64,000 bases of DNA from a virus (Duplodnaviria > Heunggongvirae > Uroviricota > Caudoviricetes), in IMG/VR virus record IMGVR_UViG_2850808358_000005; one strand, 5' to 3'. Both the position numbers and the translations under genes were made by a program. This document shows positions 8,842-61,190 of the stretch, piece by piece. The notes below the pieces were generated by a model. That model ran no database searches. It saw nothing but the letters and a program-made list of their open reading frames with translations, and was not told where the DNA came from. Positions within the stretch are counted from its first letter, which is position 1, and every line of letters begins with the position of its first letter.

Positions 8842-9624
8842 TTATGCTGCCCTTTTCATTGCGAATGGAACGCGAACAAACACGATCTCTTTATAGCAGC
8901 GGCAGTTTGGCAGCTCGCCCGCGTGGCCGGTCATGCCGTCCAAAGTTGGAGGTGAATCCCAGCGGACGAATTTACCTTTCATGTGATCGTGGGAATCTCG
9001 GACATCGCCATCATCGGCTGTACGCCAAATATAACCATCCGAGCCAATAGCTATCGCTCGGGCCATATCCAGCGCGCCCGTTGCTCTTCCCAGTTCCGTT
9101 CGGGCAATCAGATCGGCCCTAGACTTAGCAACATCGCCGGTAGATGCAATCTCTTTAGCAAACTGCTCCGCCCGACCACCGGTGACAACAGCCTCTATCG
9201 CTTTGTTCTGGATGTCGTACACCCTGTCTGCGGCCTCGAGAGGCAGAGATTTGATGTACTTGACCTGTTCGGCGATGATGGATTGCATCACCTGGCCCAC
9301 AGGAGCGCTTTCCACAAGATTGCGGAGCTCGCGACTGATGTTCTTGCTGTGTTGCCGCCAAACTTTCTCGTTCTGCCGGGTTAGGTCCGCAGTAAAGTTT
9401 TCCGCGACCTTTGTCGCCCAGGGGGTGATGATTTCACTGTAACGCTCCAGCGCCGCAATAATTTCCGTGATACTGTCATTTGAACCATCGTAGCGACCAT
9501 TTACGATGTCTCCGACCGCCCTCGCTATCCTGCGTAGGCTGGTTCGATACCGGATTTCCGCCTGACGGCTCCTGCGGTTCGTCATCAGGTTCGCCGATGC
9601 CGGGCGGCGCTTCATCTTCGGCAT
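8842..9624 (-). CDS. phage head morphogenesis protein (Mu F / SPP1 gp7 family)
   Basis: C-terminal ...GHAGELPNCRCY... motif typical of the family; located after portal. Confidence 0.6.
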   Translation of the reverse strand: MPKMKRRPASANLMTNRRSRQAEIRYRTSLRRIARAVGDIVNGRYDGSNDSITEIIAALERYSEIITPWATKVAENFTADLTRQNEKVWRQHSKNISRELRNLVESAPVGQVMQSIIAEQVKYIKSLPLEAADRVYDIQNKAIEAVVTGGRAEQFAKEIASTGDVAKSRADLIARTELGRATGALDMARAIAIGSDGYIWRTADDGDVRDSHDHMKGKFVRWDSPPTLDGMTGHAGELPNCRCYKEIVFVRVPFAMKRAA

Positions 9625-10942
9625 TCTCGATGTCCTCGTCGGTAATGGATGCCCCGATGCCGGTTACGTCAGAATTTTCTCGCAAATCAGTCATAGCGGC
9701 TTTCAGTGTCATCAGACCATCACCCAGCGCCGTACTGATTGCGTTGGTGGTGTTTAACGCCACCGTTGAGCGATCGACATCAGACATTTGCCAGAGCGGG
9801 TTAAACTCAAACGTGAAATCGTCCGGCAGCGGCTTGCCAAGTTCCGAACGATGCATGATGTCCAGTATCCGCCGCACCGGAAGACGTAAACGCCTCTCCT
9901 GCAACGAACTGATGCGATCGTAATAGTTGGCAAGGTCTGCATCACCGGTAGAAAATCCTTTCGGGGACTGTCCGAACAACCGCACCAGTGGGATACCAAC
10001 AGCGCCACTAATCTGTTCTGCAAACTGCGAAAGGATGTCATCCAGACCACTGAAGCTGTACTGATGGGTTTCAAACTTATCCCGCGAGTCCATGAGCGTC
10101 ATGCCTTCATTACTCTGGAACTGTCGAATCAGGTCGATATTCTTCAGCAACGCTTCATACGCAGGACCACCAAGTGCGATAAGCTCGCGTAGCTTCTCCA
10201 CGCTGTAGGTACGCAAATGCGCCTTGTAGACCAGCTGCGCCGCGCCGACAGTAGCGCTGTCGAACGCGGTAAGACGATCCCAGATACGCTCTACAACCGA
10301 CATTCCCCATTCGTTCTCGGTCATCTTCTGCTGAAATGGCAACGTGACGCCATCAAAGCGAATCAGGCGACTGTGATGAATGCGCCAAGCAGGAATTCCC
10401 GTTGCTGTGGTCACCACATCGTAAAACTCAGGTTTACCCAGGTCCGGCCCCATATCTTTAATGCGGCGGGTCAGTGCCGGGTCGACCATCCAGCGGTCGA
10501 GCGGGAGAATCCCCTTAAACTTGCCCTTACCGATGGTTTCGGGTCGCAGCGGGGTCATTGGTGCCTGCCCCTCAATCATGATGAAACCCACCGCGCCGCC
10601 GTAGAGGCGCGACCATTTCAGCACGTCATTCAGCGCATCCCAGATTTGCAACTCATCCAGTTGTGATTCGAGAATGCCACGATCTTTTGCATCAATTTCC
10701 GAAGTGATGCGAATGCCTTTGCGGGTCATATCATCCGGGATAGCATCGACTGCTTCGCCGATGATCCAGGATGAACGATAGGACCATTCCACCAGCATGC
10801 GGTTACGACTGGTGAAATTAGCCCGGTAGGTGGATGCTGAGTGCTGGTTAGGTGTCTGCATCCCTACGCGGGCAATAAAATTCTCATAACCATCAGCTGT
10901 GGCCTGCACAGTTCGCCGCAGGGCTTGTTTGTTTCGTGCCAT
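9476..10942 (-). CDS. phage portal protein (DUF1073-type)
   Basis: 488-aa ORF directly downstream of terminase large subunit; acidic C-terminal tail. Confidence 0.6.
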   Translation of the reverse strand: MARNKQALRRTVQATADGYENFIARVGMQTPNQHSASTYRANFTSRNRMLVEWSYRSSWIIGEAVDAIPDDMTRKGIRITSEIDAKDRGILESQLDELQIWDALNDVLKWSRLYGGAVGFIMIEGQAPMTPLRPETIGKGKFKGILPLDRWMVDPALTRRIKDMGPDLGKPEFYDVVTTATGIPAWRIHHSRLIRFDGVTLPFQQKMTENEWGMSVVERIWDRLTAFDSATVGAAQLVYKAHLRTYSVEKLRELIALGGPAYEALLKNIDLIRQFQSNEGMTLMDSRDKFETHQYSFSGLDDILSQFAEQISGAVGIPLVRLFGQSPKGFSTGDADLANYYDRISSLQERRLRLPVRRILDIMHRSELGKPLPDDFTFEFNPLWQMSDVDRSTVALNTTNAISTALGDGLMTLKAAMTDLRENSDVTGIGASITDEDIENAEDEAPPGIGEPDDEPQEPSGGNPVSNQPTQDSEGGRRHRKWSLRWFK

Positions 10943-12285
10943 CAGGCCTGTCTCCCCAGCTGTTCCCAGATATCCAGCGATGTATCGATTGGCGCGAAGG
11001 CCATAATGAATGCATCAGCAACGTTTGGTGACGGTATCTCGCGTTTTGCGAGGTCTTTTTTACTTTCGACCATCACACGTCCGTTACGGTCGAAATCACG
11101 ATGAGGTGTTGTCAGTTCCAGTTTCAGCTTTTCAAGCAACGGACAACGAGAATCTATGCTGATCAGCTCATCCACAGGATACTGTTCTCCGTTGTTAATG
11201 GCGTTAAACGTATTTCTGAAACGGTCAGCCACCAGCCACCATGCCTGAGCCTTAAGATTTGCGAAAAAGTCTTTGTTGGGGATGCCGTTGTACTCGTCAT
11301 CTGGCTCATGCACACCAGCACCGGCGTTAAACCTCTGGTAATTCACACGTCGCGCGTATGCGTTCTCGCTCTTCCGGTCAGCGTTAATTTCAGAGAATTT
11401 AGCACCGGCAGACGCACCAACACCGATAGAGTCGTAAACAATATCTGCTTCACGCTCCAGCGCCGCCTGATAAGTACGCTGGCAGCTCTTCAGTAATTCA
11501 TCTTCTTTGGCCTTCCATTCGTCGGCCCAGAAAACAACGGATCCGTGACGGTAAACGTTAGCGCACTTATCTGTACCACTGTCAGCCACGTCAAAGCCAA
11601 TACGCTTTCTTCCACTGGGTTCGAAATTTAACGTTTTGTGCGCATCCACTGCGGCTTCTATCCAGGACAGTTTGATGATTGCCGCATCATCATCAGACTC
11701 CGGAACGCCCTCATACACATGTTTAAAACCATCCGGATCACGGCGTCGCGCCGCGTCGATAACCTTAAGCATGGTGTCAGACAGAAACGGATTTTCGTCA
11801 TAGTTAATTTTGCGGATGAGAGTGCCTTCGGGCGGATCAACAACGAAGTTGCGCCAGACGAAATCAGTAACAAGTCCGGGGTTGAATATGAACCAGCATT
11901 CCGAACCCTCTTTACGGATCGTTGGCTCCAGAATTTTCCACTGGTATTCCGTCAGTGCGTGGGCTTCTTCCAGCCACAACACATCGATCCCCTCCAGTGA
12001 CTTAATTTCTTCGATGTTGCGCCATAATCCATAAAAAACAAATTCCGAGCCAGTAACCCGGTTTATGATTTTGTTGTTCAGAATACGGAAACGGTGCCGC
12101 AGACCAAACCTGTCTATCTGAATTTTGAGCAGGGTATACACCGACTCTTCGATTTTATTCTGGATCTGACGGGCACAACAAAAACGCAGGGTGTATTTAT
12201 TCGACAGAAATATGGCAATGCCAGCGGCATCCCATGATTTTGACGATGACCGACCACCATAAAGCACTTTGTTACGTGCCCGCAT
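10942..12285 (-). CDS. terminase large subunit
   Basis: N-terminal P-loop (KVLYGGRSSSKSWD); start placed at Met of MRARNKVLYGG, 11 nt after the small-subunit stop (track ORF extends to 12453). Confidence 0.65.
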   Translation of the reverse strand: MRARNKVLYGGRSSSKSWDAAGIAIFLSNKYTLRFCCARQIQNKIEESVYTLLKIQIDRFGLRHRFRILNNKIINRVTGSEFVFYGLWRNIEEIKSLEGIDVLWLEEAHALTEYQWKILEPTIRKEGSECWFIFNPGLVTDFVWRNFVVDPPEGTLIRKINYDENPFLSDTMLKVIDAARRRDPDGFKHVYEGVPESDDDAAIIKLSWIEAAVDAHKTLNFEPSGRKRIGFDVADSGTDKCANVYRHGSVVFWADEWKAKEDELLKSCQRTYQAALEREADIVYDSIGVGASAGAKFSEINADRKSENAYARRVNYQRFNAGAGVHEPDDEYNGIPNKDFFANLKAQAWWLVADRFRNTFNAINNGEQYPVDELISIDSRCPLLEKLKLELTTPHRDFDRNGRVMVESKKDLAKREIPSPNVADAFIMAFAPIDTSLDIWEQLGRQA

Positions 12286-12295
12286 AGTCCAGAAA

Positions 12296-13060
12296 CTACG
12301 TAAAGCCGGATTCAGCGTCGGTTTGGATGTCAGAGTAGAAGTCATTGAGGTCACGCTCTCCATTGCCATCATCAATACCTGCATCACGGCGAAGACGATC
12401 AGCCTCCAGAGACACCTTATCAGTGGCGGCCTTGCGGTAGGCTGTATCAGCAAATATTTTTCCTACCGTCGCAAGCGTGCCAACGATGGACTCAATACGA
12501 ACTGTATTGCGCATCATTGCTTTCTCGGCGGCGCTGATATTTTCAATCAGCATCTTCCTTTCCTGGTCCCCATTAGCATCTTCCAGCGACACCAACCACC
12601 GGCCAATATTCTCTGCAGCGACAAGGTTGTTAGCACGAAGGCGAAATAATTCGTCCTCGAGCGTCAACGCTTTAGCGTCCTCTATCACCTCATCTTTGAG
12701 CAGAAGGCGACGGGCATAACCACCGTGTTTTAATGCCTGCTGGTTACCGGGTTGGAATGGGTTAGTCGGGGGATCGGTACGCATTCCGCGTATCGGTTTC
12801 GTATCCGGTGTAGATTCTGTTTTTAGTTGCGTACTTTTTTGTGTAAGGCCAGTAATGGCAGGCTTTCTGCTGGTACGCACTTTCCTTTTTTGCGTACCAT
12901 TTTTGCAAACCTGCGTACCGCCACTGCGTGCCCAACCAAGCTTTTTGGCCCTCTTCCTGATAGCCCCTTCTGTAACGCCGTATTTCTCGCCTATATCACG
13001 GAGGCTAAGGACTCCGGCCCGGTATGCCGATTCGATGGCCTCCCAGTCCGGTTTTGCCAT
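12296..13060 (-). CDS. terminase small subunit (putative, N-terminal HTH)
   Basis: 254-aa ORF immediately upstream of the large subunit; HTH-like N-terminus. Confidence 0.5.
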   Translation of the reverse strand: MAKPDWEAIESAYRAGVLSLRDIGEKYGVTEGAIRKRAKKLGWARSGGTQVCKNGTQKRKVRTSRKPAITGLTQKSTQLKTESTPDTKPIRGMRTDPPTNPFQPGNQQALKHGGYARRLLLKDEVIEDAKALTLEDELFRLRANNLVAAENIGRWLVSLEDANGDQERKMLIENISAAEKAMMRNTVRIESIVGTLATVGKIFADTAYRKAATDKVSLEADRLRRDAGIDDGNGERDLNDFYSDIQTDAESGFT

Positions 13061-13253
13061 GATTATGCTTCCTGTGATTTACTGTTATCGCTGCCTGTCA
13101 CAATAGGTTGCTTTAATTCTTCCTCATCACTCACTCCTGCGACGCTCCGTGGCAGGCCCCCCACAGGAGTACCTTGTAAATGTAAGGTGTTTAAGCCTAA
13201 ATTAAGTCGTATCACGGTTAAATAGCAAAGAAAAATTCACAGAAGGAAAGACA

Positions 13254-13766
13254 TTGATGGAGTGGATAAATGCTTTGATGAACTATTTTGTACTTCATCC
13301 ATATCGCCTATGGGGGCTTCTTTTTATAATAGCGTTCACAAAATCCACTTTACTCATTTCGGCGATATTGCCACCAGCATCAATTATGATGGCCACTGTA
13401 ATTACAGTCAGCAAGACGACTCTTTCACCATGGGAAGCTGGAATCACGGTCATGAGTGGCGCATGGTGCGGTACTATCGTTAATTACCATCTTGGTATAA
13501 TAATTGGGCATATCCCTCAACTTGCATGTATAATATCGAGCCGTTCCAATACAATAGAACGGGTTCGCCTTCAGTTGCAAAATAACTCTGTGTCAATACT
13601 TTTCACTTCGCGCTTTATCGCCGTGCTGCGTTATATTGCTCCTTTGGTGGCAGGAATGTTGCAACTTCATCCAGTGAAAGTGTATACAGTGAGTCTGATT
13701 TCAGCTGCTAGCTGGTCAGCACTTTATGTTGGTAGTTTTAGCTTCGTGTTGCCTTTTTTTAGCTAA
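13254..13766 (+). CDS. DedA/VTT-family membrane protein (moron)
   Basis: 170-aa multi-TM protein with a SRFIAVLRYIAPLVAGM motif resembling DedA proteins; AT-rich, opposite strand to the flanking phage operons. Confidence 0.45.
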   Translation: MMEWINALMNYFVLHPYRLWGLLFIIAFTKSTLLISAILPPASIMMATVITVSKTTLSPWEAGITVMSGAWCGTIVNYHLGIIIGHIPQLACIISSRSNTIERVRLQLQNNSVSILFTSRFIAVLRYIAPLVAGMLQLHPVKVYTVSLISAASWSALYVGSFSFVLPFFS

Positions 13767-13854
13767 ACTGCCCATAAAAAGCTCTTGCGAATCCAGCTTC
13801 CCCCATTCCTCTGACAACAGAATCTGATTTGAAGGATAATGAGTAAAATTACCG

Positions 13855-14337
13855 CTACCCCCCAAGGCATTGGATCCTGATGTACTCCTGAAGCATTCTC
13901 AATGCTGTCTGGTCGCTGATGATTCCGTCCCGGATACCGAGAACGTTTCGTCCAGCAACTGGAGAGAGTTCGACGGTGGCATCATTGCCCATGCCGGAGG
14001 CGCTGGAGGTTTCGGCTGAGGATGGCACAGGGCATTTTCCTTTGACGAGCACCCGACCACCATTATCAAGCTTGCGCCGAAGAGCATCATTTTCAGCTTT
14101 CGCATTGGCTAACTCCTTCGTGTATTTAGCATCGAGTGCATCAGCAGCACGCTGGCGCTGCTGCATGTCAGTAATGGTTGCGTTCGCCAGCTTCAGTTCT
14201 CTTGCGTTTTTGTCGCGCTGCTCTTTGTAGGTAATGGCGTTATCACGGTAATGATTAACAGCCCATGACAGGCGGACGATGATGCAGATAACCAGAGCGG
14301 AGATAATCGCGGTGACTCTGCTCATTGCTGCCCCCAC
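13855..14337 (-). CDS. Rz: i-spanin Rz
   Basis: N-terminus [17 protein letters not shown]...[11 protein letters not shown] matches lambda Rz; directly downstream of the endolysin. Confidence 0.85.
13899..14105 (-). CDS. Rz1: o-spanin Rz1 (embedded in Rz, +1 frame)
   Basis: Lipoprotein signal ([16 protein letters not shown]) and proline-rich segment, embedded in Rz as in lambda. Confidence 0.7.
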
Positions 14338-14819
14338 AAACAGACTTCACGCTCAATCTCACGACGGGTCATCAGCCCTTTCCATTGCTTACCGCCAGCA
14401 TATGTCCAGCGACGTAGCTGGTCACATGCGCCTTTGATATCGCCCTGGTTTATTTTGCGAAGAAGCGTCGATGTTCTGAAATTGCCAGCGCCCACGTTGT
14501 AAACGAACGAGTAAAGAGCGCCGCGCGTTGTTTCCGGTATATCGACTTTGATGTACGGGTTAATTTGTCTGGCGACAGTGGCAAGGTCTTTATTCAGGAG
14601 AGCTTTGCATTCTGCTTCGGTATACGTTTTACCAGGCATGATGTCTTTTCCGGTGTGTCCGTGACATACAGTCCATACACCAATGATATCTTTGTATGGT
14701 ATGTAGCTGACACCTTCCAGACCATCGTTACCACCTGGGCCAGTGATTAACACAGATGCTATAGCAACAGCCCCGCCACCAATAGCAACTGCAACAGCCT
14801 TGCGTAATGATGGCGACAT
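14322..14819 (-). CDS. SAR endolysin (phage lysozyme, RrrD/R21-like)
   Basis: Near-identity to E. coli prophage lysozyme ([22 protein letters not shown]...); N-terminal signal-anchor-release segment. Confidence 0.9.
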
Positions 14820-15034
14820 TATTCACCTCTCGCAGCCTTACGCTTATCTTCTCTTATTTTGAAATACAGATTCGTCAGATAAGTCAGAAGCCCCAGAAGC
14901 AGACTTCCCAGCACACCAATCGCAGCCCACTGTGATGGACTGACCTGATCCAACCACTGCAAAAACCAGTAGCCGGCACTGCCGGCGGAGGTGCCGTAGG
15001 CAATGCCTGTTGATATTTTTTCCATCTGATACAT
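14819..15034 (-). CDS. holin (EssD/S21-like pinholin)
   Basis: 71-aa 2-TM protein [24 protein letters not shown]; immediately upstream of the endolysin. Confidence 0.85.
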
Positions 15035-15712
15035 ATCCCGCCCCCCGACAGACCTGTGCTATCGGAAAGAAAAAAGGCCATCAGCAAAACTCTGATGGCC
15101 TGAATCACCTTTACCAATATTGTATGAAAAAACACGCACGTCTAATTGACAATAATTTTCATTTCCATTAAAAAAGATCGCGTAGCATTCTTAATTCATG
15201 AGGAACTTTACCCGCCAGCAATCTGAGTAGCGAAAGCTGTTCATCCCCAATGTTTTTGCTGGCGGGTCCTTTTTTCTACGGTCCTCCTCCCCGGAGGGGC
15301 ATTTCATTATTTTTCTAATCATTACTGGTGAGAAGGCGGAAGAAAAAGCCAGTTCTTCGCCCCTAAATAACAGCATGATTCCAGTCCATGCAAAATCTGA
15401 TTTCCAGCTCACACATACCGAGCACTGTACAAAAAACCGCCAGCCAAGGCAGTTAAGAGTGTGTTCCCGGGGTTTGCTTAGAATATTTTGTAAGTTGTCC
15501 GAAGAGATATTTACAACACCAGAATGATGCATTATCAGTCCCCTGCCAGAGGTTCACTACGTAACCTGACCGACAATGCACCATTCTGGTGCTGAAAAAA
15601 GAGCACTGGAACTGCAACAAAACAACATCACAGAACAGGAGATGGTAAGGAGTCAGACATTCCCACACAATATTGTGTCAGTGCAAATAACAACCTTCGT
15701 CTCAAATCTCGC

Positions 15713-15787
<75 letters not shown>

Positions 15788-15790
15788 ATA

Positions 15791-15866
<76 letters not shown>

Positions 15867-15868
15867 GC

Positions 15869-15945
15869 TGGCCCACCACCGAGGACTCGAACCTCGCACC
15901 GTCAACTTAGAAGGTTGATGCTCTATCCGGATGAGCTAGTGGTGG
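15869..15945 (-). tRNA. tRNA-Arg (anticodon UCU, reads rare AGA)
   Basis: Anticodon arm TCAAC-CTTCTAA-GTTGA; T-arm GGTTCGAGTCC; CCA encoded; phage argN/argO-like. Confidence 0.8.
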
Positions 15946-15946
15946 T

Positions 15947-16023
15947 TGGTGGCCCTTGCTGGACTTGAACCAGCGACCTGGCGATTATGAGTCGCTCGCT
16001 CTGACCAACTGAGCTAAAGGGCC
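15947..16023 (-). tRNA. tRNA-Ile2-like (anticodon CAU; could be elongator Met)
   Basis: Closely resembles E. coli ileX (GGCCC.TTAGCTCAG...GCGACTCATAATCGC...GGTTCAAGTCCAGC); anticodon loop CUCAUAA. Confidence 0.7.
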
Positions 16024-16111
16024 GGAGGCAGAATAATAACCATATGTCATCACATCTGCAAACTCATCTGACCACCAGCACGTTTAACGTCCTGTGCCGT
16101 TTTTCAGGTAT

Positions 16112-16133
16112 AAAAAAACCCGCATAAAGCGGG
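16112..16133 (-). terminator. rho-independent terminator between Q and the tRNA/lysis genes (tR'-like)
   Basis: Minus strand GCCCGCTTTATGCGGG followed by TTTTTTT. Confidence 0.55.
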
Positions 16134-16212
16134 CTCTTTCAAATGTCCATGTCTGCTATTCGCCTCGCGGTACAGCTTTGCGAAGCGTACAAGAATTGAA
16201 GCAGTTTTTACG

Positions 16213-16767
16213 TCAAAAAGCAATAACTTTTTTCTCTATACCAAAAGCCATAACCATTGGTTTGTACAAAATAAATTCTGCCACCTTTAGCCAATGCTCA
16301 ATGCGTCTTTCACAGGTTCTTAAACTCCATTTCGGGTGTGCATCATTCAGCAGTTCAGCCATTTTGCGTTTGGTCATCCCCCGCCCCTCATACCGTTGCC
16401 GAAGGACGCTAATCAATCCTGGATGCTCTGCCAGCACCTCACTTATAACCCGATCAATACATAACGCCTCTGCATCAGTACAATGCGCCAGCCAGCTCTT
16501 TTGCTTACCGTTAATCATATCCCGCAAAAAAGCCTCAAGTTCAGACTTGTTCAGACCTGCTTTTTTCATCCTCCGGAGCGCCTCGTTAATTGCCGTTTTT
16601 GTCAGCTTTTTAGAGGTCAACATCAGGTTAAACATATTCCCCGTCTTACCGCCACCAATATACGACCAGCGCCCCCACATACGTAGTTTTCCCTGAATCC
16701 AGACACTTTCCAGCGTGGTGAGACGAAGGTGTTCTCCGCTTTTTCCTGTATTCGTTGGGTAAATCAT
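16213..16767 (-). CDS. late-gene antiterminator Q-like protein
   Basis: Position upstream of tR', tRNAs and lysis cassette; start at internal ATG forming an ATGA overlap with the YbcO-like stop (track ORF extends to 16887). Confidence 0.55.
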   Translation of the reverse strand: MIYPTNTGKSGEHLRLTTLESVWIQGKLRMWGRWSYIGGGKTGNMFNLMLTSKKLTKTAINEALRRMKKAGLNKSELEAFLRDMINGKQKSWLAHCTDAEALCIDRVISEVLAEHPGLISVLRQRYEGRGMTKRKMAELLNDAHPKWSLRTCERRIEHWLKVAEFILYKPMVMAFGIEKKVIAF

Positions 16768-17054
16768 AAATATCCCTCCTTTCTCCAGATTTCTTGTGTG
16801 CGAAAAACACCTTCTGCATGCATCAGGCGTAATTCTTCTTTGGTGTAATCGCTGGTTTTTACCCGCCCGTCGATTAAATCGTGGCACGAGCTACAGGCAA
16901 TCGCTGCCTGCATATCGTGTGGCTTTATCGCTGTTCCGCACGTTCCCGCCAGTCGGTAATGCGCCAGCACAGACGTTTCCGGATCGTGATTGCAGTAGCC
17001 AGGAATTCTGACGGTGCACATCTGCCCCCGCGCCGCTTTAAGTAAATCCACCAT
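16764..17054 (-). CDS. YbcO-like protein (DUF1364, putative nuclease)
   Basis: Resembles E. coli DLP12 YbcO (KAARG..C.VRIPG.CN..PETSVLAH.RL.G.CGT..KP); Cys-rich. Confidence 0.55.
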   Translation of the reverse strand: MVDLLKAARGQMCTVRIPGYCNHDPETSVLAHYRLAGTCGTAIKPHDMQAAIACSSCHDLIDGRVKTSDYTKEELRLMHAEGVFRTQEIWRKEGYL

Positions 17055-17653
17055 TACGCAAACTCCAGCAGCTGCGCGGCCACATTTTCGACTTGTTCCG
17101 GAGAGGAAAATTTACGGAACAGAATCCAGTTCCACAGCACATTCAGTACAGATTTATAAACCTGCTGAAACTCGGTTTCGTCCATATTCGCAAACGCGAT
17201 AGATTTCGCCCGACACCCACGGCTACCGTCCGGATAAAAATGCTCGGTGTAAAATCCGGCCTGAATGGCTACCCACTCGCGGAAAGCCTCAAACGACTTT
17301 AGCAATGCCGTATCACGGGTTCTGCGTGTCGCAACTGTATTCAGATATTGCTCTACGGCTTCGCTCAGAGCTGGCGTATGTTCCCGACCTACTGATTCGC
17401 GCAGGTACTCAACGAAGCCTGAAACCAGTTTTTGTTCGCTAGGCGTGATCGCCCCTCCGACCGGAGTCCAGTAATCGAACCCCAGTTGCAGGAGTTTGAA
17501 AAAACGCTTGTGGAATGCGTAGTTACGAACGCGCTTAAAATCAGCGTGTATCCACTCACCTGTTTTGATTTGATGCAGAAAATCGCAACTCTCCGGCGTC
17601 GCCGGGAGAAGTAAACCAGAAGAAGTTTGTTTGACTAACTGTAAATGCACCAC
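17054..17653 (-). CDS. DUF1367-family phage protein (nin region)
   Basis: 199-aa ORF, translationally coupled to the YbcO-like gene; family call from memory. Confidence 0.45.
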   Translation of the reverse strand: MVHLQLVKQTSSGLLLPATPESCDFLHQIKTGEWIHADFKRVRNYAFHKRFFKLLQLGFDYWTPVGGAITPSEQKLVSGFVEYLRESVGREHTPALSEAVEQYLNTVATRRTRDTALLKSFEAFREWVAIQAGFYTEHFYPDGSRGCRAKSIAFANMDETEFQQVYKSVLNVLWNWILFRKFSSPEQVENVAAQLLEFA

Positions 17654-18486: not shown

Positions 18487-19173
18487 TCACTCCTTCTCTT
18501 CTTTACCGTAGTGGAGTTGACCAATTTTGATAAGAGGGCGTCCCTGAGATTTGCGGTGTAGATTGGTATCGCGCAGAGAATACACACAGCCACAATATTC
18601 CTGCTGATAGAATTTTTCGCGCTTGCTGATTTCAATCATACGGGACGAGCCGCCCTGCTTGCGCCAGTTATAATCCCAGTACACCATGCCCGGATAATGC
18701 GCGACGGCTCGCCGCCCACAGTCGTTAACCTGCTGCATATTTTTCCAGCGTGAAATGCCCAGTGAACTGCTGATCACACTGAAACCATTTTCAGCGGCGT
18801 ACAGCGCTGTCCGCTCAAAACGCATGTCAAAACACATGGTGCAACGGATCCCTCGTTCGGGCTCCCATTCCATTCCTTTGGCTCGTTCAAACCAGTTGTC
18901 TGTGTCGTAATCAGCATCAATAAACGGCACGCCGTGTTGTTCAGCAAAGCGAATATTCTCATCCTTACGAATTAAATACTCTTTCTGAGGATGAATGTTC
19001 GGGTTGTAGAAAAAGATGGTGTAGTCGATTCCCGAGGCCTGAAGCGCCTCCATCACCTCACCGGAACATGGAGCACAGCAAGAGTGCAGTAGTAGTTTGT
19101 TTGCCCCGTTTGGGAGCTCCAATTTGGGCCGTTTGAAATCAGCAACTGTCATAAATATGTTTATTGGGGTCAT
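18487..19173 (-). CDS. epoxyqueuosine reductase QueH-like protein (DUF208)
   Basis: Cys motifs [11 protein letters not shown] and EYCGCVYS characteristic of DUF208/QueH; 228 aa. Confidence 0.6.
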
Positions 19174-39683: not shown

Positions 39684-39986
39684 TTAACGCGTATTTTTCA
39701 GCGACTCCTGTGCAAAATACGCTGTTGCTTTTTTTAATATATCTCGCTCAAGGCGAGCTTCATTTAACGCCTTACGCAGTTGCAGAATTTCAGATTCCAG
39801 TTCAGCCACCGTGCGGGAACCAGGAGTACCGAGCCCTTTTCTGGCGGCGGTAACCCATTGTCCTAAAGTGCCTTCAGGAAGGGATAATCGGGAAGCGCCT
39901 TCACTGATCGAAAGTTGATTTTCAAGAACCGTTCTGACAGCTTCGGCTTTGAACTCTTTAGAGTAACGTTGGGTTTTTCTGCTCAT
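39684..39986 (-). CDS. IS600 transposase OrfA
   Basis: Near-identical to the other OrfA copies. Confidence 0.85.
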   Translation of the reverse strand: MSRKTQRYSKEFKAEAVRTVLENQLSISEGASRLSLPEGTLGQWVTAARKGLGTPGSRTVAELESEILQLRKALNEARLERDILKKATAYFAQESLKNTR

Positions 39987-40050
39987 TATTAGCTCCTTCT
40001 GATGCCATTCTATTTCAGGAAGGAGTGTCCGTTAAACTCAGGCTACCTCA

Positions 40051-40718
40051 GTGTCATTTTGCGCGGCTGCCAGTGTATTGAGCAAATTACCAACACCAGA
40101 AAAATAAGGCGAATAAGTGCTTTCTGCCGCCTTTAACTCTCCTGGAGTTGCCTGCAATTCATCAGCATTTTTCTGTTTCTCTACAACATTACGAGCCATC
40201 ATGCCAAAGCCAAACGGCCCGGCAACGCCCATAACCGCAAGTTTTGTCCCCCACGATACGGTGGTTTTAAACAGGTTGTTTAATCTCGAAGTGGTCGTCC
40301 GTAGCGTAGAATTGATCTGCTTGTAAGTTTTCAGCGTCTGTTTGGCGTTTTTCCCCAGCCCGCTGAGGTACTTATCAAACATCGTTTCGCCGCGACCTTT
40401 ATAGTTGCTCACCAGCGAATCAGGTGTTTTCCCGCTGCCAACAAAGCGCCATTTTTCATCCCTTAAACGTCCATCAGTGGAAGCAGCCAGAACTGGCGCG
40501 GGTGAAGATGGTTTCCTGGGAGCCTGATTGGCTTCTCCGCCTGTGGTTGTCTGCCAAGAGCCACCTCCCGGACCGGTATTTGAAGGTATTTTAAGCGGCG
40601 TACCGGCAGGGCCAATCATCAGTCCGTTGCGATACTTTTCAAATATCGCCTCAAGCCGCCTGAGGTGTTCTTCATTAACATCCAGCGTCAGAACTGGCAT
40701 CTGGTTACCAGCCATCAC
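40051..40718 (-). pseudogene. phage structural gene (possibly tape measure N-terminus), C-terminally truncated by IS600 copy 3
   Basis: 223 native codons then 3 IS-derived codons and a stop; last gene of the structural operon before the IS. Confidence 0.35.
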
Positions 40719-49555: not shown

Positions 49556-50275
49556 ATGACCGAATCCAGCGATTACGAATCCGTCCAGGTCTTTATCGGC
49601 GTTGATGTCGGTAAAGATACGCATCACGCTGTTGCCATTAATCGTTCAGGTAAACGCCTGTTCGATAAAGCATTACCCAACGACGAAAACAAACTCAGGT
49701 CGCTAATATCTGACCTGAAACAACATGGTCAGATACTGCTGGTTGTTGATCAGCCAGCTACCATCGGTGCGTTACCTGTCACCGTTGCCCGCTCAGAAGG
49801 AGTCCTTGTCGGATACCTCCCTGGACTGGCCATGCGCCGCATAGCCGACTTACACGCCGGTGAAGCTAAAACTGATGCTCGTGACGCTGCCATCATTGCC
49901 GAAGCTGCCCGTACCCTGCCTCACGCGCTACGCACGCTGAAACTGGCTGACGAGCAAATCGCCGAACTCTCCATGCTCTGCGGCTTCGATGATGATCTTG
50001 CCGCACAGACAACGCAGGCCAGCAACCGTATCCGCGGCCTTCTGACCCAGATACATCCGGCACTGGAGCGCGTTCTCGGTCCGAGACTTGAGCACCCGGC
50101 GGTACTCGATCTTCTCCAGCGATATCCCTCACCAGAAAAACTCGCTTCGCTGGGTGAGAAGAAGCTGGCAGCCCAGCTCTGCAAACTTGCGCCTCGTCTG
50201 GGTAAACGCCTTGCAGCAGACATAGCTCAGGCACTGGCCGAACGATGTAAGAAAATCATATCCCATACCATTTAA
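49556..50275 (+). pseudogene. IS110-family transposase, C-terminally truncated
   Basis: N-terminal DEDD domain (VFIGVDVGKDTHHAVAIN...); ends abruptly where it meets the truncated trkG. Confidence 0.55.
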
Positions 50276-51540
50276 CACCAGTATAAAAAACACCGTGAAG
50301 AGAGTATAAAGAAAAAAGAAACTCCATACAGACCTCATGACACGATCTGTAACTATCTTCCCTCCTACATTTACACTCAACAACGCTCTGGGATGAGAAA
50401 GCTGGTTTATCTCGTGTTTGCTTTGTTTGAAAAGTATAAGAAATCGAAGTGACTTAATTCCACCACAAGTTGAACCTACACATCCCCCAAAGAAACTTGA
50501 CAACAGCAAAAACACTATCGTGTGCGTGGGCCAGTTTGCATAATCCTGCGTAGCTAAACCATTATCAGTGAGCATGGAGCTGGCAAGAAAAAACGAATGA
50601 ATAAAACTTCCAGGCAAGTCATACATACCTATATGCCAGACCTGGAAAGAGGTAACAATGATCACCCCTAAGGCTATTAACAGAAAGAAACGAAGTTCAA
50701 TATCTCTGATTAAAGGTTTTATCGTTTTCCTGCTAATAACAATATACCAAAGGGTGAAATTGAAAGCCGATAGCAGGGAAAAAGAACCAGCCACCAGCTC
50801 AACCAAATAGTTATTAAAATATCCGATACTCTCGCTATGAGTTGAGAAACCACCAAGCGAAACTGTGGATATCCCGTGACAAATAGCATCAAACAAAGGC
50901 ATTCCTGCAAGTCTATAACAGACAATACAAGCAATACCTAATAAAGAATAAGTTATCCAAAGTGTCCGTGACGTATCGGCCAGGCGGGGAGTAAGTTTGT
51001 CATCCTTAAATGGCCCCGGCATTTCTGACTGATAAAGCTTTGCACCACCAATACCCAATAATGGCAATACAGCAACCGCCAGAACAATAACTCCTAAACC
51101 ACCTATAAAATTTAACTGTGACCGATAGTACAAATATGCCCGAGGTAATGAACTAACATCATCAATTACAGTTGCTCCTGTTGTTGTTATTCCAGAAACC
51201 CCTTCAAATAGAGCATCGATAAACGTTAAATTAAGTTCTGAGTCAATCCATAAAGGGAATGCACTAATAACAGAAAACAAAATCCAAAACATTACAATTA
51301 TAATAAACCCATCACGGGTACGTAATTGAATACCAGATTTCTTAGTTGTATACCACGCTCCGCCACCAATGCAAAAAATATAACGAAAGTTATAAAGAAA
51401 ACGAACAGGCTTTTTTCTTTATAAAACAATGCTACAACCATTGGTGGCAACATTGAAAGACTATAGAGCCAAACCAGGAACCCACACATATGAGTAACAA
51501 CTCTTACATGAGATGTATTCATATCTAAATATTCTTTCAA
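50129..51540 (-). pseudogene. trkG: Trk potassium transporter TrkG homolog, frameshifted and C-terminally truncated
   Basis: Both ORFs (51298..51540, 50129..51292) match Rac-encoded TrkG as recalled; frame break near 51292; last ~45 codons unrelated. Confidence 0.7.
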
Positions 51541-51659: not shown

Positions 51660-52136
51660 TTACTTTAAACACTGTTCGGTTATGTATTGCTGAGCACCTT
51701 CAAGTTGGGCCTGCATCATTACCAGTCGTTCCCGGAGGGTGAAATAATCCCGTTCAGCGGTGTCTGCCAGTCTGGGGGAGACTGCATTATCCACGCTGGA
51801 GGCGATGGTGGCTTCACGCACGGACGGAGAGACTGCTTTGATGTGCAACCGACGACGACCAGCGGCAACATCATCACGTAGAGCATCATTTTCAGCTTTC
51901 GCATCAGCTAACTCCTTCAGGTATTTTGCATCGAGTGCAGCAACATCACGCTGGCGTATCTGCATGTCAGTAATGATTGCGGTCGCCTGGTTGAGTTTTT
52001 CCTTCACATTATCGCGCTGCTCTTTGTAGGTAATGGCGTTATCACGGTAATGATTAACAGCCCATGACAGGCGGACGATGATGCAGATAACCAGAGCGGA
52101 GATAATCGCGGTGACTCTGCTCATTGCTGCCCCCAC
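51660..52136 (-). CDS. Rz: i-spanin Rz (prophage 2 copy)
   Basis: Lambda Rz-like over its whole length. Confidence 0.85.
51719..51904 (-). CDS. Rz1: o-spanin Rz1 (prophage 2 copy)
   Basis: [14 protein letters not shown] lipobox and PPSPPAW proline-rich segment, embedded in Rz. Confidence 0.75.
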
Positions 52137-52618
52137 AAACAGACTTCACGCTCAATCTCACGACGGGTCATCAGCCCTTTCCATTGCTTACCGCCAGCAT
52201 ATGTCCAGCGACGTAGCTGGTCACATGCGCCTTTGATATCGCCCTGGTTTATTTTGCGAAGAAGCGTCGATGTTCTGAAATTGCCAGCGCCCACGTTGTA
52301 AACGAACGAGTAAAGAGCGCCGCGCGTTGTTTCCGGTATATCGACTTTGATGTACGGGTTAATTTGTCTGGCGACAGTGGCAAGGTCTTTATTCAGGAGA
52401 GCTTTGCATTCTGCTTCGGTATACGTTTTACCAGGCATGATGTCTTTTCCGGTGTGTCCGTGACATACAGTCCATACACCAATGATATCTTTGTATGGTA
52501 TGTAGCTGACACCTTCCAGACCATCGTTACCACCTGGGCCAGTGATTAACACAGATGCTATAGCAACAGCCCCGCCACCAATAGCAACTGCAACAGCCTT
52601 GCGTAATGATGGCGACAT
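52121..52618 (-). CDS. SAR endolysin (prophage 2 copy)
   Basis: Identical to 14322..14819. Confidence 0.9.
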
Positions 52619-52833
52619 TATTCACCTCTCGCAGCCTTACGCTTATCTTCTCTTATTTTGAAATACAGATTCGTCAGATAAGTCAGAAGCCCCAGAAGCA
52701 GACTTCCCAGCACACCAATCGCAGCCCACTGTGATGGACTGACCTGATCCAACCACTGCAAAAACCAGTAGCCGGCACTGCCGGCGGAGGTGCCGTAGGC
52801 AATGCCTGTTGATATTTTTTCCATCTGATACAT
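52618..52833 (-). CDS. holin (prophage 2 copy)
   Basis: Identical to 14819..15034. Confidence 0.85.
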
Positions 52834-53511
52834 ATCCCGCCCCCCGACAGACCTGTGCTATCGGAAAGAAAAAAGGCCATCAGCAAAACTCTGATGGCCT
52901 GAATCACCTTTACCAATATTGTATGAAAAAACACGCACGTCTAATTGACAATAATTTTCATTTCCATTAAAAAAGATCGCGTAGCATTCTTAATTCATGA
53001 GGAACTTTACCCGCCAGCAATCTGAGTAGCGAAAGCTGTTCATCCCCAATGTTTTTGCTGGCGGGTCCTTTTTTCTACGGTCCTCCTCCCGGAGGGGGCA
53101 TTTCATTATTTTTCTAATCATTACTGGTGAGAAGGCGGAAGAAAAAGCCAGTTCTTCGCCCCTAAATAACAGCATGATTCCAGTCCATGCAAAATCTGAT
53201 TTCCAGCTCACACATACCGAGCACTGTACAAAAAACCGCCAGCCAAGGCAGTTAAGAGTGTGTTCCCGGGGTTTGCTTAGAATATTTTGTAAGTTGTCCG
53301 AAGAGATATTTACAACACCAGAATGATGCATTATCAGTCCCCTGCCAGAGGTTCACTACGTAACCTGACCGACAATGCACCATTCTGGTGCTGAAAAAAG
53401 AGCACTGGAACTGCAACAAAACAACATCACAGAACAGGAGATGGTAAGGAGTCAGACATTCCCACACAATATTGTGTCAGTGCAAATAACAACCTTCGTC
53501 TCAAATCTCGC

Positions 53512-53586
<75 letters not shown>

Positions 53587-53589
53587 ATA

Positions 53590-53665
<76 letters not shown>

Positions 53666-53667
53666 GC

Positions 53668-53744
53668 TGGCCCACCACCGAGGACTCGAACCTCGCACCG
53701 TCAACTTAGAAGGTTGATGCTCTATCCGGATGAGCTAGTGGTGG
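53668..53744 (-). tRNA. tRNA-Arg (UCU), second copy
   Basis: Identical to 15869..15945. Confidence 0.8.
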
Positions 53745-53745
53745 T

Positions 53746-53822
53746 TGGTGGCCCTTGCTGGACTTGAACCAGCGACCTGGCGATTATGAGTCGCTCGCTC
53801 TGACCAACTGAGCTAAAGGGCC
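53746..53822 (-). tRNA. tRNA-Ile2-like (CAU), second copy
   Basis: Identical to 15947..16023. Confidence 0.7.
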
Positions 53823-53910
53823 GGAGGCAGAATAATAACCATATGTCATCACATCTGCAAACTCATCTGACCACCAGCACGTTTAACGTCCTGTGCCGTT
53901 TTTCAGGTAT

Positions 53911-53932
53911 AAAAAAACCCGCATAAAGCGGG
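53911..53932 (-). terminator. tR'-like rho-independent terminator (prophage 2 copy)
   Basis: Same hairpin and T-run as 16112..16133. Confidence 0.55.
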
Positions 53933-54029
53933 CTCTTTCAAATGTCCATGTCTGCTATTCGCCTCGCGGTACAGCTTTGCGAAGCGTACCGGAATTGAAG
54001 CAGTTTATGGCTAAAATTGCAAGAACTTT

Positions 54030-54587
54030 TTAAAGCTGCATCAGCCTTTCCACCAGTTTATCTCTGCGAACAACAAACCAACCATTGGCTCTCGCCAGTT
54101 CCAGCCATGACTCAAGGGAAATAACAATATCATCATCCCGCAACTGAATTGTGGAAACAGTGACACCGCCTTGCTGATAACAGAGAACTCGCGTGTCGTA
54201 ACTTTTCTGGCATGAAACTGGCGTTGACGGCTCCTTTTGACTGAAATAGCAGTCTTCCAGTTTTTCGAACACATCCCACGCCTGATCGGTTTCGAGCATT
54301 TTTGCGTGGCGGGCTGCGCCGCGTTCTGTCCAGAGAATGAGGGAGCGGGTTTTGGGAGAGATGGGATTTTGTGAGTAGTTTAAAGCTACCCGCAATTCTT
54401 TAAGGTCATTACCAACAACTTTGAAAAAGTGTTTCCCTTCAACGAAGCGTACTTTGTTCTCATAATGATTCTGGCGAATACGCACCGGCTCAGTGCCGTA
54501 AAGCTGCGCCAAAAGTTCGGTGGTAATAACAGGAATCTGGTTATAGGTAACAGGGGAAAGGTTTTTGACAGAAATCTGAACAGTCAT
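54030..54587 (-). CDS. ORF6N/KilA-N-like phage protein (antirepressor-like)
   Basis: N-terminal NQIPVITTELLAQLYGTEPVRIRQNH; paralog of 57299..57847; inserted between Q and tR' in prophage 2 only. Confidence 0.4.
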   Translation of the reverse strand: MTVQISVKNLSPVTYNQIPVITTELLAQLYGTEPVRIRQNHYENKVRFVEGKHFFKVVGNDLKELRVALNYSQNPISPKTRSLILWTERGAARHAKMLETDQAWDVFEKLEDCYFSQKEPSTPVSCQKSYDTRVLCYQQGGVTVSTIQLRDDDIVISLESWLELARANGWFVVRRDKLVERLMQL

Positions 54588-54856: not shown

Positions 54857-55411
54857 TCAACAGACAGTTTTTAAATCCCCGGAAGAGAATGCATCACGCA
54901 TCGGCAGATAGAGCATAAACTCTGCCATTTTCAACCACGCATCTATGCGATTACGGCACGTGGCGTAACACCACTCAGGGTGTGAATCATTCAGCAATTC
55001 AGCCATTTTTCGCTTAGTCATCCCCCTCCCTTCATATCGTTGCCGGAGGATACAAATCAATCCTGGGTGTTCTGCCAGCACTTCACTAATCACCCGATCA
55101 ATGCATAACGCCTCTGCATCAGTACAATGCACCAGCCAGCTTTTTTGCTTGCCGTTGATCATATCCCGCAAAAAAGCCTCAAGTTCAGGTTTGTCCAGAC
55201 CTGCTTTTTTCATCCTCCGGAGCGCCTCGTTAATTGCCGTTTTTGTCAGCTTTTTAGAGGCCAACAACTGGTTGAACATATTCCCCGTCTTACCGCCGCC
55301 AATATACGACCAGCGCCCCCACATGCGCAGTTTTCCCTGAATCCAGACACTTTCCAGCGTGGTGAGACGAAGGTGTTCCCCACTTTTGCCTGTATTTGTT
55401 GGGTAAATCAT
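54857..55411 (-). CDS. late-gene antiterminator Q-like protein (prophage 2 copy)
   Basis: Homolog of 16213..16767; ATGA overlap with the YbcO-like stop. Confidence 0.55.
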   Translation of the reverse strand: MIYPTNTGKSGEHLRLTTLESVWIQGKLRMWGRWSYIGGGKTGNMFNQLLASKKLTKTAINEALRRMKKAGLDKPELEAFLRDMINGKQKSWLVHCTDAEALCIDRVISEVLAEHPGLICILRQRYEGRGMTKRKMAELLNDSHPEWCYATCRNRIDAWLKMAEFMLYLPMRDAFSSGDLKTVC

Positions 55412-55698
55412 AAATAACCTTCCTTTCTCCAGATTTCTTGCGTGCGAAAAACACCTTCTGCATGCATCAGGCGTAATTCTTCTTTGGTGTAATCGCTTGT
55501 TTTTACCCGCCCGTCGATTAAATCGTGGCATGAGCTACAGGCAATCGCCGCCTGCATATCGTGTGGTTTTGTCGCTGTTCCGCACGTTCCCGCCAGTCGG
55601 TAATGCGCCAGCACAGACGTTTCCGGATCGTGATTGCAGTAGCCAGGAATTCTGACGGTGCACATCTGCCCCCGCGCCGCTTTACGTAAATCCACCAT
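55408..55698 (-). CDS. YbcO-like protein (prophage 2 copy)
   Basis: Homolog of 16764..17054. Confidence 0.55.
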   Translation of the reverse strand: MVDLRKAARGQMCTVRIPGYCNHDPETSVLAHYRLAGTCGTATKPHDMQAAIACSSCHDLIDGRVKTSDYTKEELRLMHAEGVFRTQEIWRKEGYL

Positions 55699-59989: not shown

Positions 59990-60032
59990 TGAGGTGTACT
60001 GGCAATAGCGGACACTACCATTTGTTCTTTTT

Positions 60033-60851: not shown

Positions 60852-60886
60852 CGCTTCAATGGGAAATTGTTGTCGCCATTGTTCGA

Positions 60887-61190
60887 TTAACGCGTATTTT
60901 TCAGCGACTCCTGTGCAAAATACGCTGTTGCTTTTTTTAATATATCTCGCTCAAGGCGAGCTTCATTTAACGCCTTACGCAGTTGCAGAATTTCAGATTC
61001 CAGTTCAGCCACCGTGCAGGAACCAGGAGTACCGAGCCCTTTTCTGGCGGCGGTAACCCATTGTCCTAAAGTGCCTTCAGGAAGGGATAATCGGGAAGCG
61101 CCTTCACTGATCGAAAGTTGATTTTCAAGAACCGTTCTGACAGCTTCGGCTTTGAACTCTTTAGAGTAACGTTGGGTTTTTTCTGCTCAT
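60887..61190 (-). pseudogene. IS600 orfA, frameshifted after codon 4
   Basis: T-run at 61177..61182 is T6 versus T5 in copy 3, giving MSRKNPTLL-stop. Confidence 0.7.

Follow-up and report, generated by a model that had tools for sequence, protein, structure and literature searches.

The 64,000-nucleotide stretch of DNA analysed here, hereafter the window (IMG/VR record IMGVR_UViG_2850808358_000005, Caudoviricetes), carries, in a lambdoid prophage of Shigella/E. coli, a gene encoding a protein similar to the DedA membrane proteins. This DedA-like gene (13257..13766, + strand) is an intact, real coding gene maintained by selection and constitutes a discrete moron located in the slot occupied by bor in phage lambda. 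Judging from its sequence, its product is a member of the DedA/VTT superfamily that falls outside every characterised subfamily. The gene is probably an envelope gene of lysogenic conversion, encoding a lipid translocator linked to the PhoPQ/Mg2+ response.

The DedA proteins are widespread and needed for colistin and cationic-peptide resistance in several pathogens. The protein studied here is already annotated as 'DedA family protein' by the NCBI Prokaryotic Genome Annotation Pipeline (PGAP) or as 'VTT domain-containing protein'. Literature searches by protein accession and with DedA and prophage as terms retrieved no publication on a phage-borne DedA or on the subfamily to which this protein belongs.

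A single-gene moron after the spanin genes

The gene and the elements associated with it are the following:
13068..13864, strand not applicable: moron cassette of 797 bp, the segment absent from relatives lacking the DedA-like gene
13182..13776, + strand: core mobile unit, from the promoter to 10 nt beyond the stop codon, delimited by blastn against a Citrobacter youngae prophage (L011 7927-8520; 82.4% over 595 bp)
13188..13204, + strand: PhoP-box-like direct repeat TGTTTA-AGCCT-AAATTA, 9/12 to the consensus, with a perfect first half-site and a weak second one
13218..13223, + strand: -10-like hexamer TTAAAT, 13 nt downstream of the repeat
13244..13247, + strand: Shine-Dalgarno sequence AGGA, read from the sequence, 9 nt before ATG 13257 and 6 nt before TTG 13254
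13257..13766, + strand: coding sequence of a 169-aa predicted inner-membrane protein, an atypical member of the DedA/VTT superfamily

The limits of the cassette are given by the homology of the window to the Klebsiella phage ST16-OXA48phi5.2 and to Escherichia coli SUISSEKPC3NDM5, which stops at 13067 and restarts at 13865; the insert therefore corresponds to positions 13068-13864. The same interval spans ~208 bp in ST16-OXA48phi5.2 and less in SUISSEKPC3NDM5, versus 797 bp in the window. The same TerS and Rz genes are also found without the DedA-like gene in many E. coli prophages. Indeed, among 5,426 complete E. coli genomes, the flanking Rz/TerS DNA is matched in 1,905 and the DedA-like gene is present in only six. 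The gene has a GC content of 42.0% (38.8% at third codon positions), and the 400-bp windows covering the ORF (open reading frame) and the cassette range from 40 to 44%, versus 50-52% in the flanks. Searches for repeats and inverted repeats gave only short matches at chance level and no insertion scars. The initial annotation had described an AT-rich + strand gene standing alone between - strand terminase and lysis modules and had called it a moron. Both statements stand, the second being reinforced by the empty sites, the atypical composition, the opposite strand, promoter elements of its own that are conserved among orthologs and the position in the bor slot, i.e. just after Rz and convergent to it.

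A second phage context was found in a lambdoid prophage of C. youngae, in which a gene encoding a 78% identical protein occupies the same convergent post-spanin slot, between a spanin gene and TerS/TerL. The lysis genes of this prophage are different (two holins, a GH19 endolysin, phrog_1026 and phrog_214 spanins) and its terminase is of the lambda gpA type. Outside 13182-13776, the flanks of the two copies are unrelated (blastn). This comparison indicates that the promoter and the gene have been transferred as one unit between unrelated lambdoid phages. In C. youngae, the DedA-like gene is flanked by the two different spanin genes (phrog_214 and phrog_1026; L011 7171-7818 and 8736-9050, both - strand). 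Over its first 69-nt region, the phrog_214 gene shares 81% identity with window positions 14332-14400, a likeness hinting that the moron may have moved along with part of the neighbouring lysis cassette. A homolog of the Hfq-binding small RNA isrI (RF01392, 64.7 bits) is located just upstream of the holin genes of the same prophage (L011 10593-10689, - strand).

The list of ORFs of the window includes a + strand ORF starting at 13254 (TTG) or 13257 (ATG) and ending at 13766 (170 or 169 aa), the sole + strand gene between two - strand phage modules. PGAP retains TTG 13254 (170 aa, WP_011069285.1), and the databases hold both lengths. As all orthologs begin at the ATG equivalent (MEW...), translation more probably starts at ATG 13257. 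The central G of the Shine-Dalgarno sequence is an invariant column in the upstream alignment of 16 orthologs. Pairwise ratios of non-synonymous to synonymous substitution rates (dN/dS) range from 0.15 to 0.25 against six orthologs, and a three-taxon decomposition of the pairwise values gives ~0.18 on the branch leading to the window copy. Furthermore, all 18 Shigella-type loci have an intact ORF, though TerL and Rz are disrupted by insertion sequences (ISs) in several of them. The identical protein is encoded by at least 1000 contigs of Shigella flexneri, S. sonnei, S. dysenteriae and E. coli and by 14 IMG/VR prophage contigs. No deposited phage was found to carry the DedA-like gene at the DNA level or to encode a homolog with more than ~30% protein identity.

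Two E. coli copies illustrate the state of some of these prophages. In strain FDAARGOS_943 (L001 5574-6802), the TerL gene beside the DedA-like gene is split by IS2 and a head-morphogenesis gene has an internal stop, the DedA-like ORF being intact. In strain VL7S7 (L091 3824-4992), the whole region upstream of 13210 has been lost to an IS911 copy whose end lies 52 bp before the DedA start, and the PhoP-like box is gone with it; the ORF is again intact.

The neighbouring phage genes of the window, all on the - strand, are the following:
9476-10942, - strand: portal, to the left of the DedA-like gene
10942..12453, - strand: TerL (Pfam Terminase_3, 131 bits)
12296..13060, - strand: TerS (phrog_370, 319 bits)
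13855..14337, - strand: Rz i-spanin (Pfam Phage_lysis, 103 bits; phrog_13, 242 bits), convergent with the DedA-like gene
13899..14105, - strand: Rz1 o-spanin lipoprotein embedded in Rz (68-aa ORF in the +1 frame of Rz, lipobox ...VVGC), a position at which PGAP also places Rz1 in E. coli SUISSEKPC3NDM5
14322-14819, - strand: endolysin (Pfam Phage_lysozyme, 155.6 bits)
14819-15034, - strand: P21-type class II holin (Phage_holin_2_1, 121.4 bits)

The second prophage of the window, which is Rac-like, carries after its lysis cassette an AT-rich ORF encoding a TrkH/TrkG-type cation transporter. This ORF is truncated (387 aa, covering positions 41-444 of the 502 of the profile) and adjoins an IS110-family transposase gene; the post-Rz region concerned comprises 50129-51292 (-), 49556-50275 (+) and 51660-52136 (-). 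This is another membrane-transporter moron in a post-Rz slot.

An atypical member of the DedA/VTT superfamily

The protein matches the Pfam model VTT_dom (PF09335) with 52.4 bits, above the gathering score of 33.9 (E=9e-14; residues 41-161, profile positions 3-121 of 123). In addition, a profile of the clade formed by the protein and its orthologs aligns over 166 columns with a canonical DedA profile including YqjA, YghB, DedA, YabI, YohD and others (hhalign, 99.9% probability, E=9.6e-33). These profile matches place the protein in the DedA/VTT superfamily, as the DedA-like motif noticed in the initial annotation had led to expect. The designation as a DedA protein holds only at this level. 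Indeed, the scores fall below the cut-offs of the equivalog models for DedA and UptA, the C-terminal helix is lacking and a lysine replaces the glutamate of the core.

The structure predicted by AlphaFold2 with a 58-sequence alignment (pLDDT, the local distance difference test as predicted, 85; predicted template modelling score, pTM, 0.81) includes helices at residues 2-13, 15-35, 41-52, 58-85, 87-96 and 98-109, with a break at L38-P39-P40, followed by helices 111-118, 124-134 and 139-168, with a break at R119-123. A prediction with a 20-sequence clade alignment reached a pLDDT of 54.5 and was not taken into the fold search. Two helix-break-helix motifs are formed by 32-35/41-52, with an LPP tip (pLDDT ~62 for residues 31-50), and by 111-118/124-134, with a tip around R119. 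The predicted layout thus comprises an N-terminal amphipathic helix, a first transmembrane (TM) helix, the first helix-break-helix (LPP tip), TM2, two amphipathic helices, the second helix-break-helix (R119/R125) and TM3. It matches the layout of YqjA (TM1/hairpin/TM2/amphipathic/hairpin/TM3) minus the last helix of YqjA, and the model indicates that a fourth TM helix is absent. The window protein stops at a point equivalent to YqjA residue ~173 and the whole clade is devoid of the last TM helix.

Searches of the PDB by sequence and by Foldseek gave no significant match, so that no solved DedA was available for comparison, and a search of BFVD gave weak matches to giant-virus VTT proteins alone and no phage DedA. 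Among PHROG and Pfam families, only phrog_33251 (unknown function) and VTT_dom were matched, and no holin, antiholin or other lysis family. No PADLOC defence model was matched (0 families at E <= 0.01).

The correspondence with the residues of characterised DedAs was established by an alignment with the six E. coli K-12 paralogs (NC_000913), by hmmalign of the 150 best library hits and by hhalign, all three of which agree. The position of YqjA E39 is occupied in the clade by K29, which, like A41, is invariant in 20 clade sequences. Among the 150 best library hits, lysine is found in this column in all 19 clade hits and nowhere else, the other 127 hits aligned there having E (125), D (1) or Q (1). 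YqjA D51 corresponds to the invariant A41 (LPPAS in the clade versus LPGDS). A41 was considered as a peculiarity of the clade and rejected, for YabI-like relatives carry S, A, T or V at the same position. Given this variability, only the Glu-to-Lys change is clade-specific among the changes of the core. The clade-invariant R119 and R125 align with YqjA R130/R136 (R112/R118 of UptA), and S42 corresponds to the conserved YqjA S52. The clade has no invariant acidic residue at any position, and all 32 clade-invariant residues are kept in the window copy.

In YqjA, E39, D51, R130 and R136 sit at the centre of a hairpin-mediated dimer; both acidic residues are reported to be essential, and the D51A and R136A mutants are non-functional. 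In UptA, E32 hydrogen-bonds R118 and both contribute to the binding of undecaprenyl phosphate (UndP, or C55-P). The arginine pair is essential for YqjA function and binds C55-P in UptA. Both proteins are dimeric, with the hairpins at the interface. The acidic residues E39 and D51 and the length of ~220 aa with a C-terminal TM helix, which characterise canonical proton-dependent DedAs, are lacking from the window protein. Together with the equivalog scores, these differences in the core indicate a superfamily member that belongs to no characterised subfamily. The clade is therefore a natural experiment, as a selected subfamily with a lysine in place of a buried glutamate that is reported to be essential in YqjA makes the role of this residue testable.

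Chromosomal relatives and regulation

Members of the family were detected by a genome scan in a further 62 genomes at the species level (Citrobacter, Kosakonia, Enterobacter, Lelliottia, Hafnia, Morganella and Arsenophonus), most of these loci being in chromosomal, non-phage contexts; C. youngae provides the clear second phage context. In an exhaustive profile search of 1.84 billion representatives, only 12 matched at E <= 1e-30, after which there was a sharp drop to generic DedAs. The next-best matches after the clade are YabI-like proteins and 530-700-aa fusions of DedA with a PAP2 lipid phosphatase, with or without LssY_C. The gene thus belongs to a small, mostly chromosomal clade of Enterobacterales, from which temperate phages have captured it along with its promoter.

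Two other copies were considered as prophage cargo and rejected. One, from an IMG/VR 'viral' contig of Citrobacter, lies just outside a Mu-like prophage. The other, from a Citrobacter freundii 'plasmid', has a chromosome-like context next to icd. Indeed, this 82-kb replicon (pRHBSTW-00902_4, NZ_CP056259.1) carries icd, rluE, mnmA, hflD and purB beside the DedA-like gene and looks like chromosomal DNA, i.e. either a replicon that was wrongly assigned or a large segment captured from the chromosome.

The 90 bp upstream of the gene were compared among 16 orthologs from unrelated contexts. All the conserved non-coding columns belong to four elements: a direct repeat, (T/G)GTT(G/T)A-N5-xATT(T/G)A, a -10-like hexamer, T(T/C)(A/T)AAT, the Shine-Dalgarno sequence and the ATG. 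The PhoP box consensus is (T/G)GTTTA-N5-(T/G)GTTTA (PMC5775216, PMC3335776). In Salmonella, PhoP-dependent promoters of architecture I have a box in direct orientation at 12 nt (11-13) from the -10, and those of architecture II carry an additional upstream box (PMC3335776). In 29 of 39 Enterobacteriaceae orthologs, the repeat lies exactly 12 nt upstream of TTAAAT, TCTAAT or TTTAAT. The mgtE-linked loci of Enterobacter and Lelliottia harbour a second box ~20 nt farther upstream, which has a 12/12 match to the PhoP consensus in ~24 of them. The proximal box of the orthologs matches at 9-10/12. The promoters of the orthologs thus fit architectures I and II, and the 13-nt spacing of the window is within the 11-13 range. 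The comparison indicates that the promoter of the clade is conserved and of PhoP architecture. At the Morganella loci (L059-L062, L066 and L068-L070), an EamA/RarD-like transporter gene immediately precedes the DedA-like gene (only 7 bp apart in L059), which is convergent with corA; as no PhoP-like box is found there, regulation differs in Morganella.

The genomic neighbourhood also points to Mg2+. A gene encoding MgtE or CorA lies within 4 kb at 40 of the 62 chromosomal loci, in four different arrangements, these counts being inflated by shared ancestry. In both Lelliottia (divergent genes; L017 7673-7842, - strand, 115 bits) and Arsenophonus (tandem genes; L048 8792-8961, + strand, 108 bits), the gene is separated from mgtE by an M-box Mg2+ riboswitch (RF00380). 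An Rfam scan of the window found only tRNAs. As a perfect PhoP box and the M-box occur in the same intergenic region in Enterobacter/Lelliottia, mgtE may be under dual control by PhoP and the riboswitch in these genera, like mgtA of Salmonella.

Published transcriptomics extend this picture. In E. hormaechei 4236, N5F16_08425 (MgtE) is up 19.6-fold, N5F16_08430 (DedA family) 23.1-fold and N5F16_08435 (short-chain dehydrogenase/reductase, SDR) 3.1-fold in the colistin-resistant isolate, whose mgrB deletion de-represses PhoPQ, and the arn genes, pagP, slyB, ybjG and mgtA are also up. This order (MgtE, DedA, SDR) is the synteny of the clade loci L024 and L017. The Enterobacter ortholog is thus among the most induced envelope genes of this isolate, and is not known to have been recognised as a DedA subtype of its own. 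An RNA-seq preprint on phoPQ in E. cloacae reported the arn genes only. The comparison argues strongly for PhoPQ/Mg2+-linked expression of the Enterobacter orthologs. For the Shigella copy, the same evidence gives only a weak indication of such expression, and the action of PhoP on the window box is uncertain.

Possible roles and comparison with known systems

The initial annotation had suggested an effect on host envelope properties or on lysis timing. An envelope role is plausible, whereas lysis timing is not supported: most relatives are ordinary chromosomal genes without a lysis context, and the gene is convergent to the late operon and matches no lysis family. The reading that probably holds is that of a lysogenic-conversion envelope gene, whose product would be a translocator of anionic lipids or polyprenyl phosphates linked to PhoPQ/Mg2+ remodelling. 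The clade would be under PhoPQ-type control, as suggested by the promoters and by the transcriptomics of the Enterobacter ortholog, and would answer low Mg2+, cationic peptides and acid, being co-induced with the Mg2+ importer gene mgtE and the lipid A-remodelling genes arn and pagP. By homology, an anionic lipid head group would be moved or bound at the pair of re-entrant hairpins through the two conserved arginines. UndP is transported by E. coli DedA and Bacillus subtilis UptA, and the nearest outgroup of the clade consists of YabI-like proteins and DedA-PAP2(-LssY_C) fusions; homology and domain fusions thus suggest UndP or a phospholipid as the likely substrate. Such lipid handling would support envelope remodelling under PhoPQ-inducing conditions. 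Coupling or substrate would probably be unlike those of YqjA- and UptA-type proteins, because the buried glutamate that pairs with the second arginine in canonical DedAs is a lysine in the clade. In the lysogen, the protein would be a conversion factor altering envelope properties, outside the lysis programme.

Several observations weigh against this reading. The window box has three mismatches, a weak half-site (AAATTA) and a 13-nt instead of a 12-nt spacing, and the criterion applied to S. flexneri 301 allowed at most two mismatches (PMC5775216). Among the 117 PhoPQ-dependent genes of this strain, no recognisable match to the DedA-like gene was found, the unnamed SFxxxx tags not being mappable (PMC5775216). 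Literature searches by protein accession retrieved no report of expression or phenotype in Shigella or E. coli. A generic scan found neither a consensus sigma-70 promoter upstream of the ORF nor an intrinsic terminator downstream, though the former is expected to be missing from an activator-dependent promoter without a -35. The presence of the gene in only six of the complete E. coli genomes implies that any benefit is lineage-specific, and N5F16_08430 was taken as an ortholog of the clade by synteny, not by sequence. The scores obtained with the NCBIfam equivalog models are far below the cut-offs, both for DedA (PRK10847, 31 bits versus 236) and for UptA (NF052604 and NF052605, 19.9 and 16.3 bits versus 250 and 300). 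Finally, the Glu-to-Lys change removes a residue that is important in YqjA and that contributes to the binding of C55-P in UptA, so that transport activity cannot be assumed.

A more specific proposal, of rather low probability, is that the clade is a charge-inverted, mechanistically distinct branch of the DedAs, with three buried cationic residues (K29, R119 and R125), no conserved acidic residue and a minimal core of three TM helices and two hairpins without the C-terminal helix. It would be a dedicated component of the PhoPQ/Mg2+ regulon working without the Glu-Arg pair that is considered central to DedA function, for instance as an uncoupled scramblase of anionic lipids or as a regulator hetero-dimerising with host DedAs. 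Its capture by temperate phages, with its host-signal-responsive promoter, would have occurred at least twice, and envelope remodelling of the lysogen would be switched on inside the host.

An alternative, also of low probability, is that the protein transports nothing itself and acts as a modulator or dominant-negative partner, hetero-dimerising through its hairpins with the host YqjA, YghB, DedA and YabI and thereby altering membrane potential, UndP recycling or sensitivity to drugs or peptides. The dimeric structure of YqjA and UptA, whose interface contains the hairpins and the E39/D51/R130/R136 cluster, is compatible with such a role. So are the features of the clade, which retains the hairpin motifs and both arginines but has an invariant lysine where 126 of the 127 other top hits have an acidic residue, and no C-terminal helix. 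However, the clade is conserved under purifying selection as one chromosomal gene in many genera, co-induced with transporters, and an autonomous function fits these data at least as well.

A factor of divalent-cation (Mg2+/Ca2+) homeostasis, aiding Mg2+ acquisition directly or indirectly so that the lysogen grows better in Mg2+-poor niches of the host thanks to the prophage copy, is unlikely. The proximity of MgtE/CorA genes and M-boxes and the co-induction of the ortholog with MgtE would be explained, and Klebsiella DedA mutants have divalent-cation defects while a Xanthomonas DedA is reported to be necessary for Mg2+ uptake. However, the phage copies and their closest relatives (Citrobacter, Kosakonia) are not beside Mg2+ transporter genes, shared ancestry inflates the linkage counts and the defects of DedA mutants towards cations are regarded as an indirect effect of membrane hyperpolarisation.

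The gene is very unlikely to be a silent passenger, i.e. a hitch-hiker whose promoter has decayed and which has ceased to be expressed or useful in Shigella/E. coli. The weak second half-site, the 13-nt spacing, the lack of a terminator and the rarity in E. coli would fit such decay, as would the probable silencing of AT-rich DNA by H-NS (principle from PMC3335776) and the loss of the upstream region in VL7S7. However, the dN/dS of its own branch, the conservation of all the clade-invariant residues and the integrity of the ORF in every copy, even in IS-ridden, defective prophages, weigh against this alternative.

The two remaining alternatives are highly improbable. A lysis-timing or holin-modulating protein would be consistent with the position next to the lysis cassette and with the generally known influence of DedAs on membrane potential, which triggers holins (hyperpolarisation is described in the literature). 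However, the gene is on the strand opposite to the late operon and carries promoter elements of its own, most homologs are chromosomal without lysis genes nearby, no lysis PHROG or Pfam family is matched and lambda bor, which occupies this slot too, has nothing to do with lysis. A membrane protein made from the prophage for superinfection exclusion or as an anti-phage factor would recall the many small inner-membrane moron proteins that are generally known to block DNA entry of other phages, and the position and orientation suit a gene expressed in the lysogen; however, there is no PADLOC match, and the chromosomal, mgtE-linked orthologs induced with the PhoP regulon point to physiology rather than defence.

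If the lysogenic-conversion envelope gene is expressed, the prophage gives Shigella, in which PhoPQ is a regulator of virulence and polymyxin tolerance, an extra PhoPQ-type envelope gene normally lacking in E. coli. More generally, the case exemplifies a moron that has been transferred among unrelated lambdoid phages as one unit from promoter to stop codon, its promoter having the architecture of a host two-component regulon (PhoPQ).

Other features of the window were also recorded. An IpaH-type effector gene of the type III secretion system (34052-35767, + strand; LRR_TTSS, LRR and NEL E3-ligase domains) lies among IS copies between two prophage segments and indicates a Shigella or enteroinvasive E. 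coli-like host. Lambdoid modules are duplicated with 94-98% identity (14078-16232 and 51877-54031; 16334-17635 and 54978-56280; 31300-33475 and 61254-63428). They comprise half of Rz, the endolysin, the holin, a tRNA cluster and DUF1133/Q-like genes, and the break of homology in the middle of Rz suggests recombination there. The two tRNA clusters, Gly(tcc)-Thr(tgt)-Arg(tct)-'Met'(cat), are identical (15713-16023 and 53512-53822, - strand), and the CAT tRNA is probably a lysidine-modified Ile2, because PGAP calls a tRNA-Ile in the E. coli homolog (L001). Four ~1265-bp IS3-family copies are ~99.6-99.8% identical (29693-30958, 36211-37475, 38787-40051 and 59989-61254). The element, with a transposase at 29736-30893 (HTH_Tnp_1 and rve domains), is IS600-like by size and by the PGAP name in L091. 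An accessory gene of the early/nin region encodes the epoxyqueuosine reductase QueH (18487-19173, - strand; Pfam, 220 bits), and a hokD toxin gene lies near queH in homologous E. coli prophages.

Among known systems, lambda bor and trkG of the Rac prophage follow the same logic as the DedA-like gene, i.e. a single accessory gene of atypical composition directly after Rz/Rz1 and before the packaging genes. Like the window gene, bor is convergent to the late operon, and it encodes an envelope protein thought to be active in the lysogen. However, Bor is an outer-membrane lipoprotein and TrkG a K+ transporter, neither being related in sequence to the DedA-like protein, whereas the cargo of the window is an inner-membrane protein of the DedA superfamily that brings a PhoP-type promoter.

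The closest relatives outside the clade, YabI and the DedA-PAP2(-LssY_C) fusions, share with it a common VTT/DedA core, the ExxxxxxxxxLPG[TSAV] and RFxxxxR..P..AG motifs and a D51 equivalent that is likewise non-acidic. However, identity is only ~20-27%, and they keep the core glutamate and have extra C-terminal helices or domains, whereas the clade has KST...LPPAS and ends after TM3. Homology with YqjA/YghB covers ~166 columns and the equivalents of R130/R136 and S52 are kept. The clade differs from YqjA by E39 to K29, by D51 to A41 and by the lack of ~10 N-terminal and ~45 C-terminal residues, including a helix implicated in crosslinking. The undecaprenyl-phosphate translocases UptA of B. 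subtilis and DedA of E. coli belong to the same superfamily and share the C55-P-binding arginine pair; UptA E32 is a lysine in the window protein, and the UptA equivalog models give 16-20 bits versus cut-offs of 250-300. Finally, N5F16_08430 of E. hormaechei, the chromosomal ortholog by synteny (MgtE, DedA, SDR) that is up 23-fold in the mgrB-deletion mutant, is ~50% identical to the phage copy and has two PhoP boxes (one perfect) and an mgtE neighbour, both absent from the phage copy.

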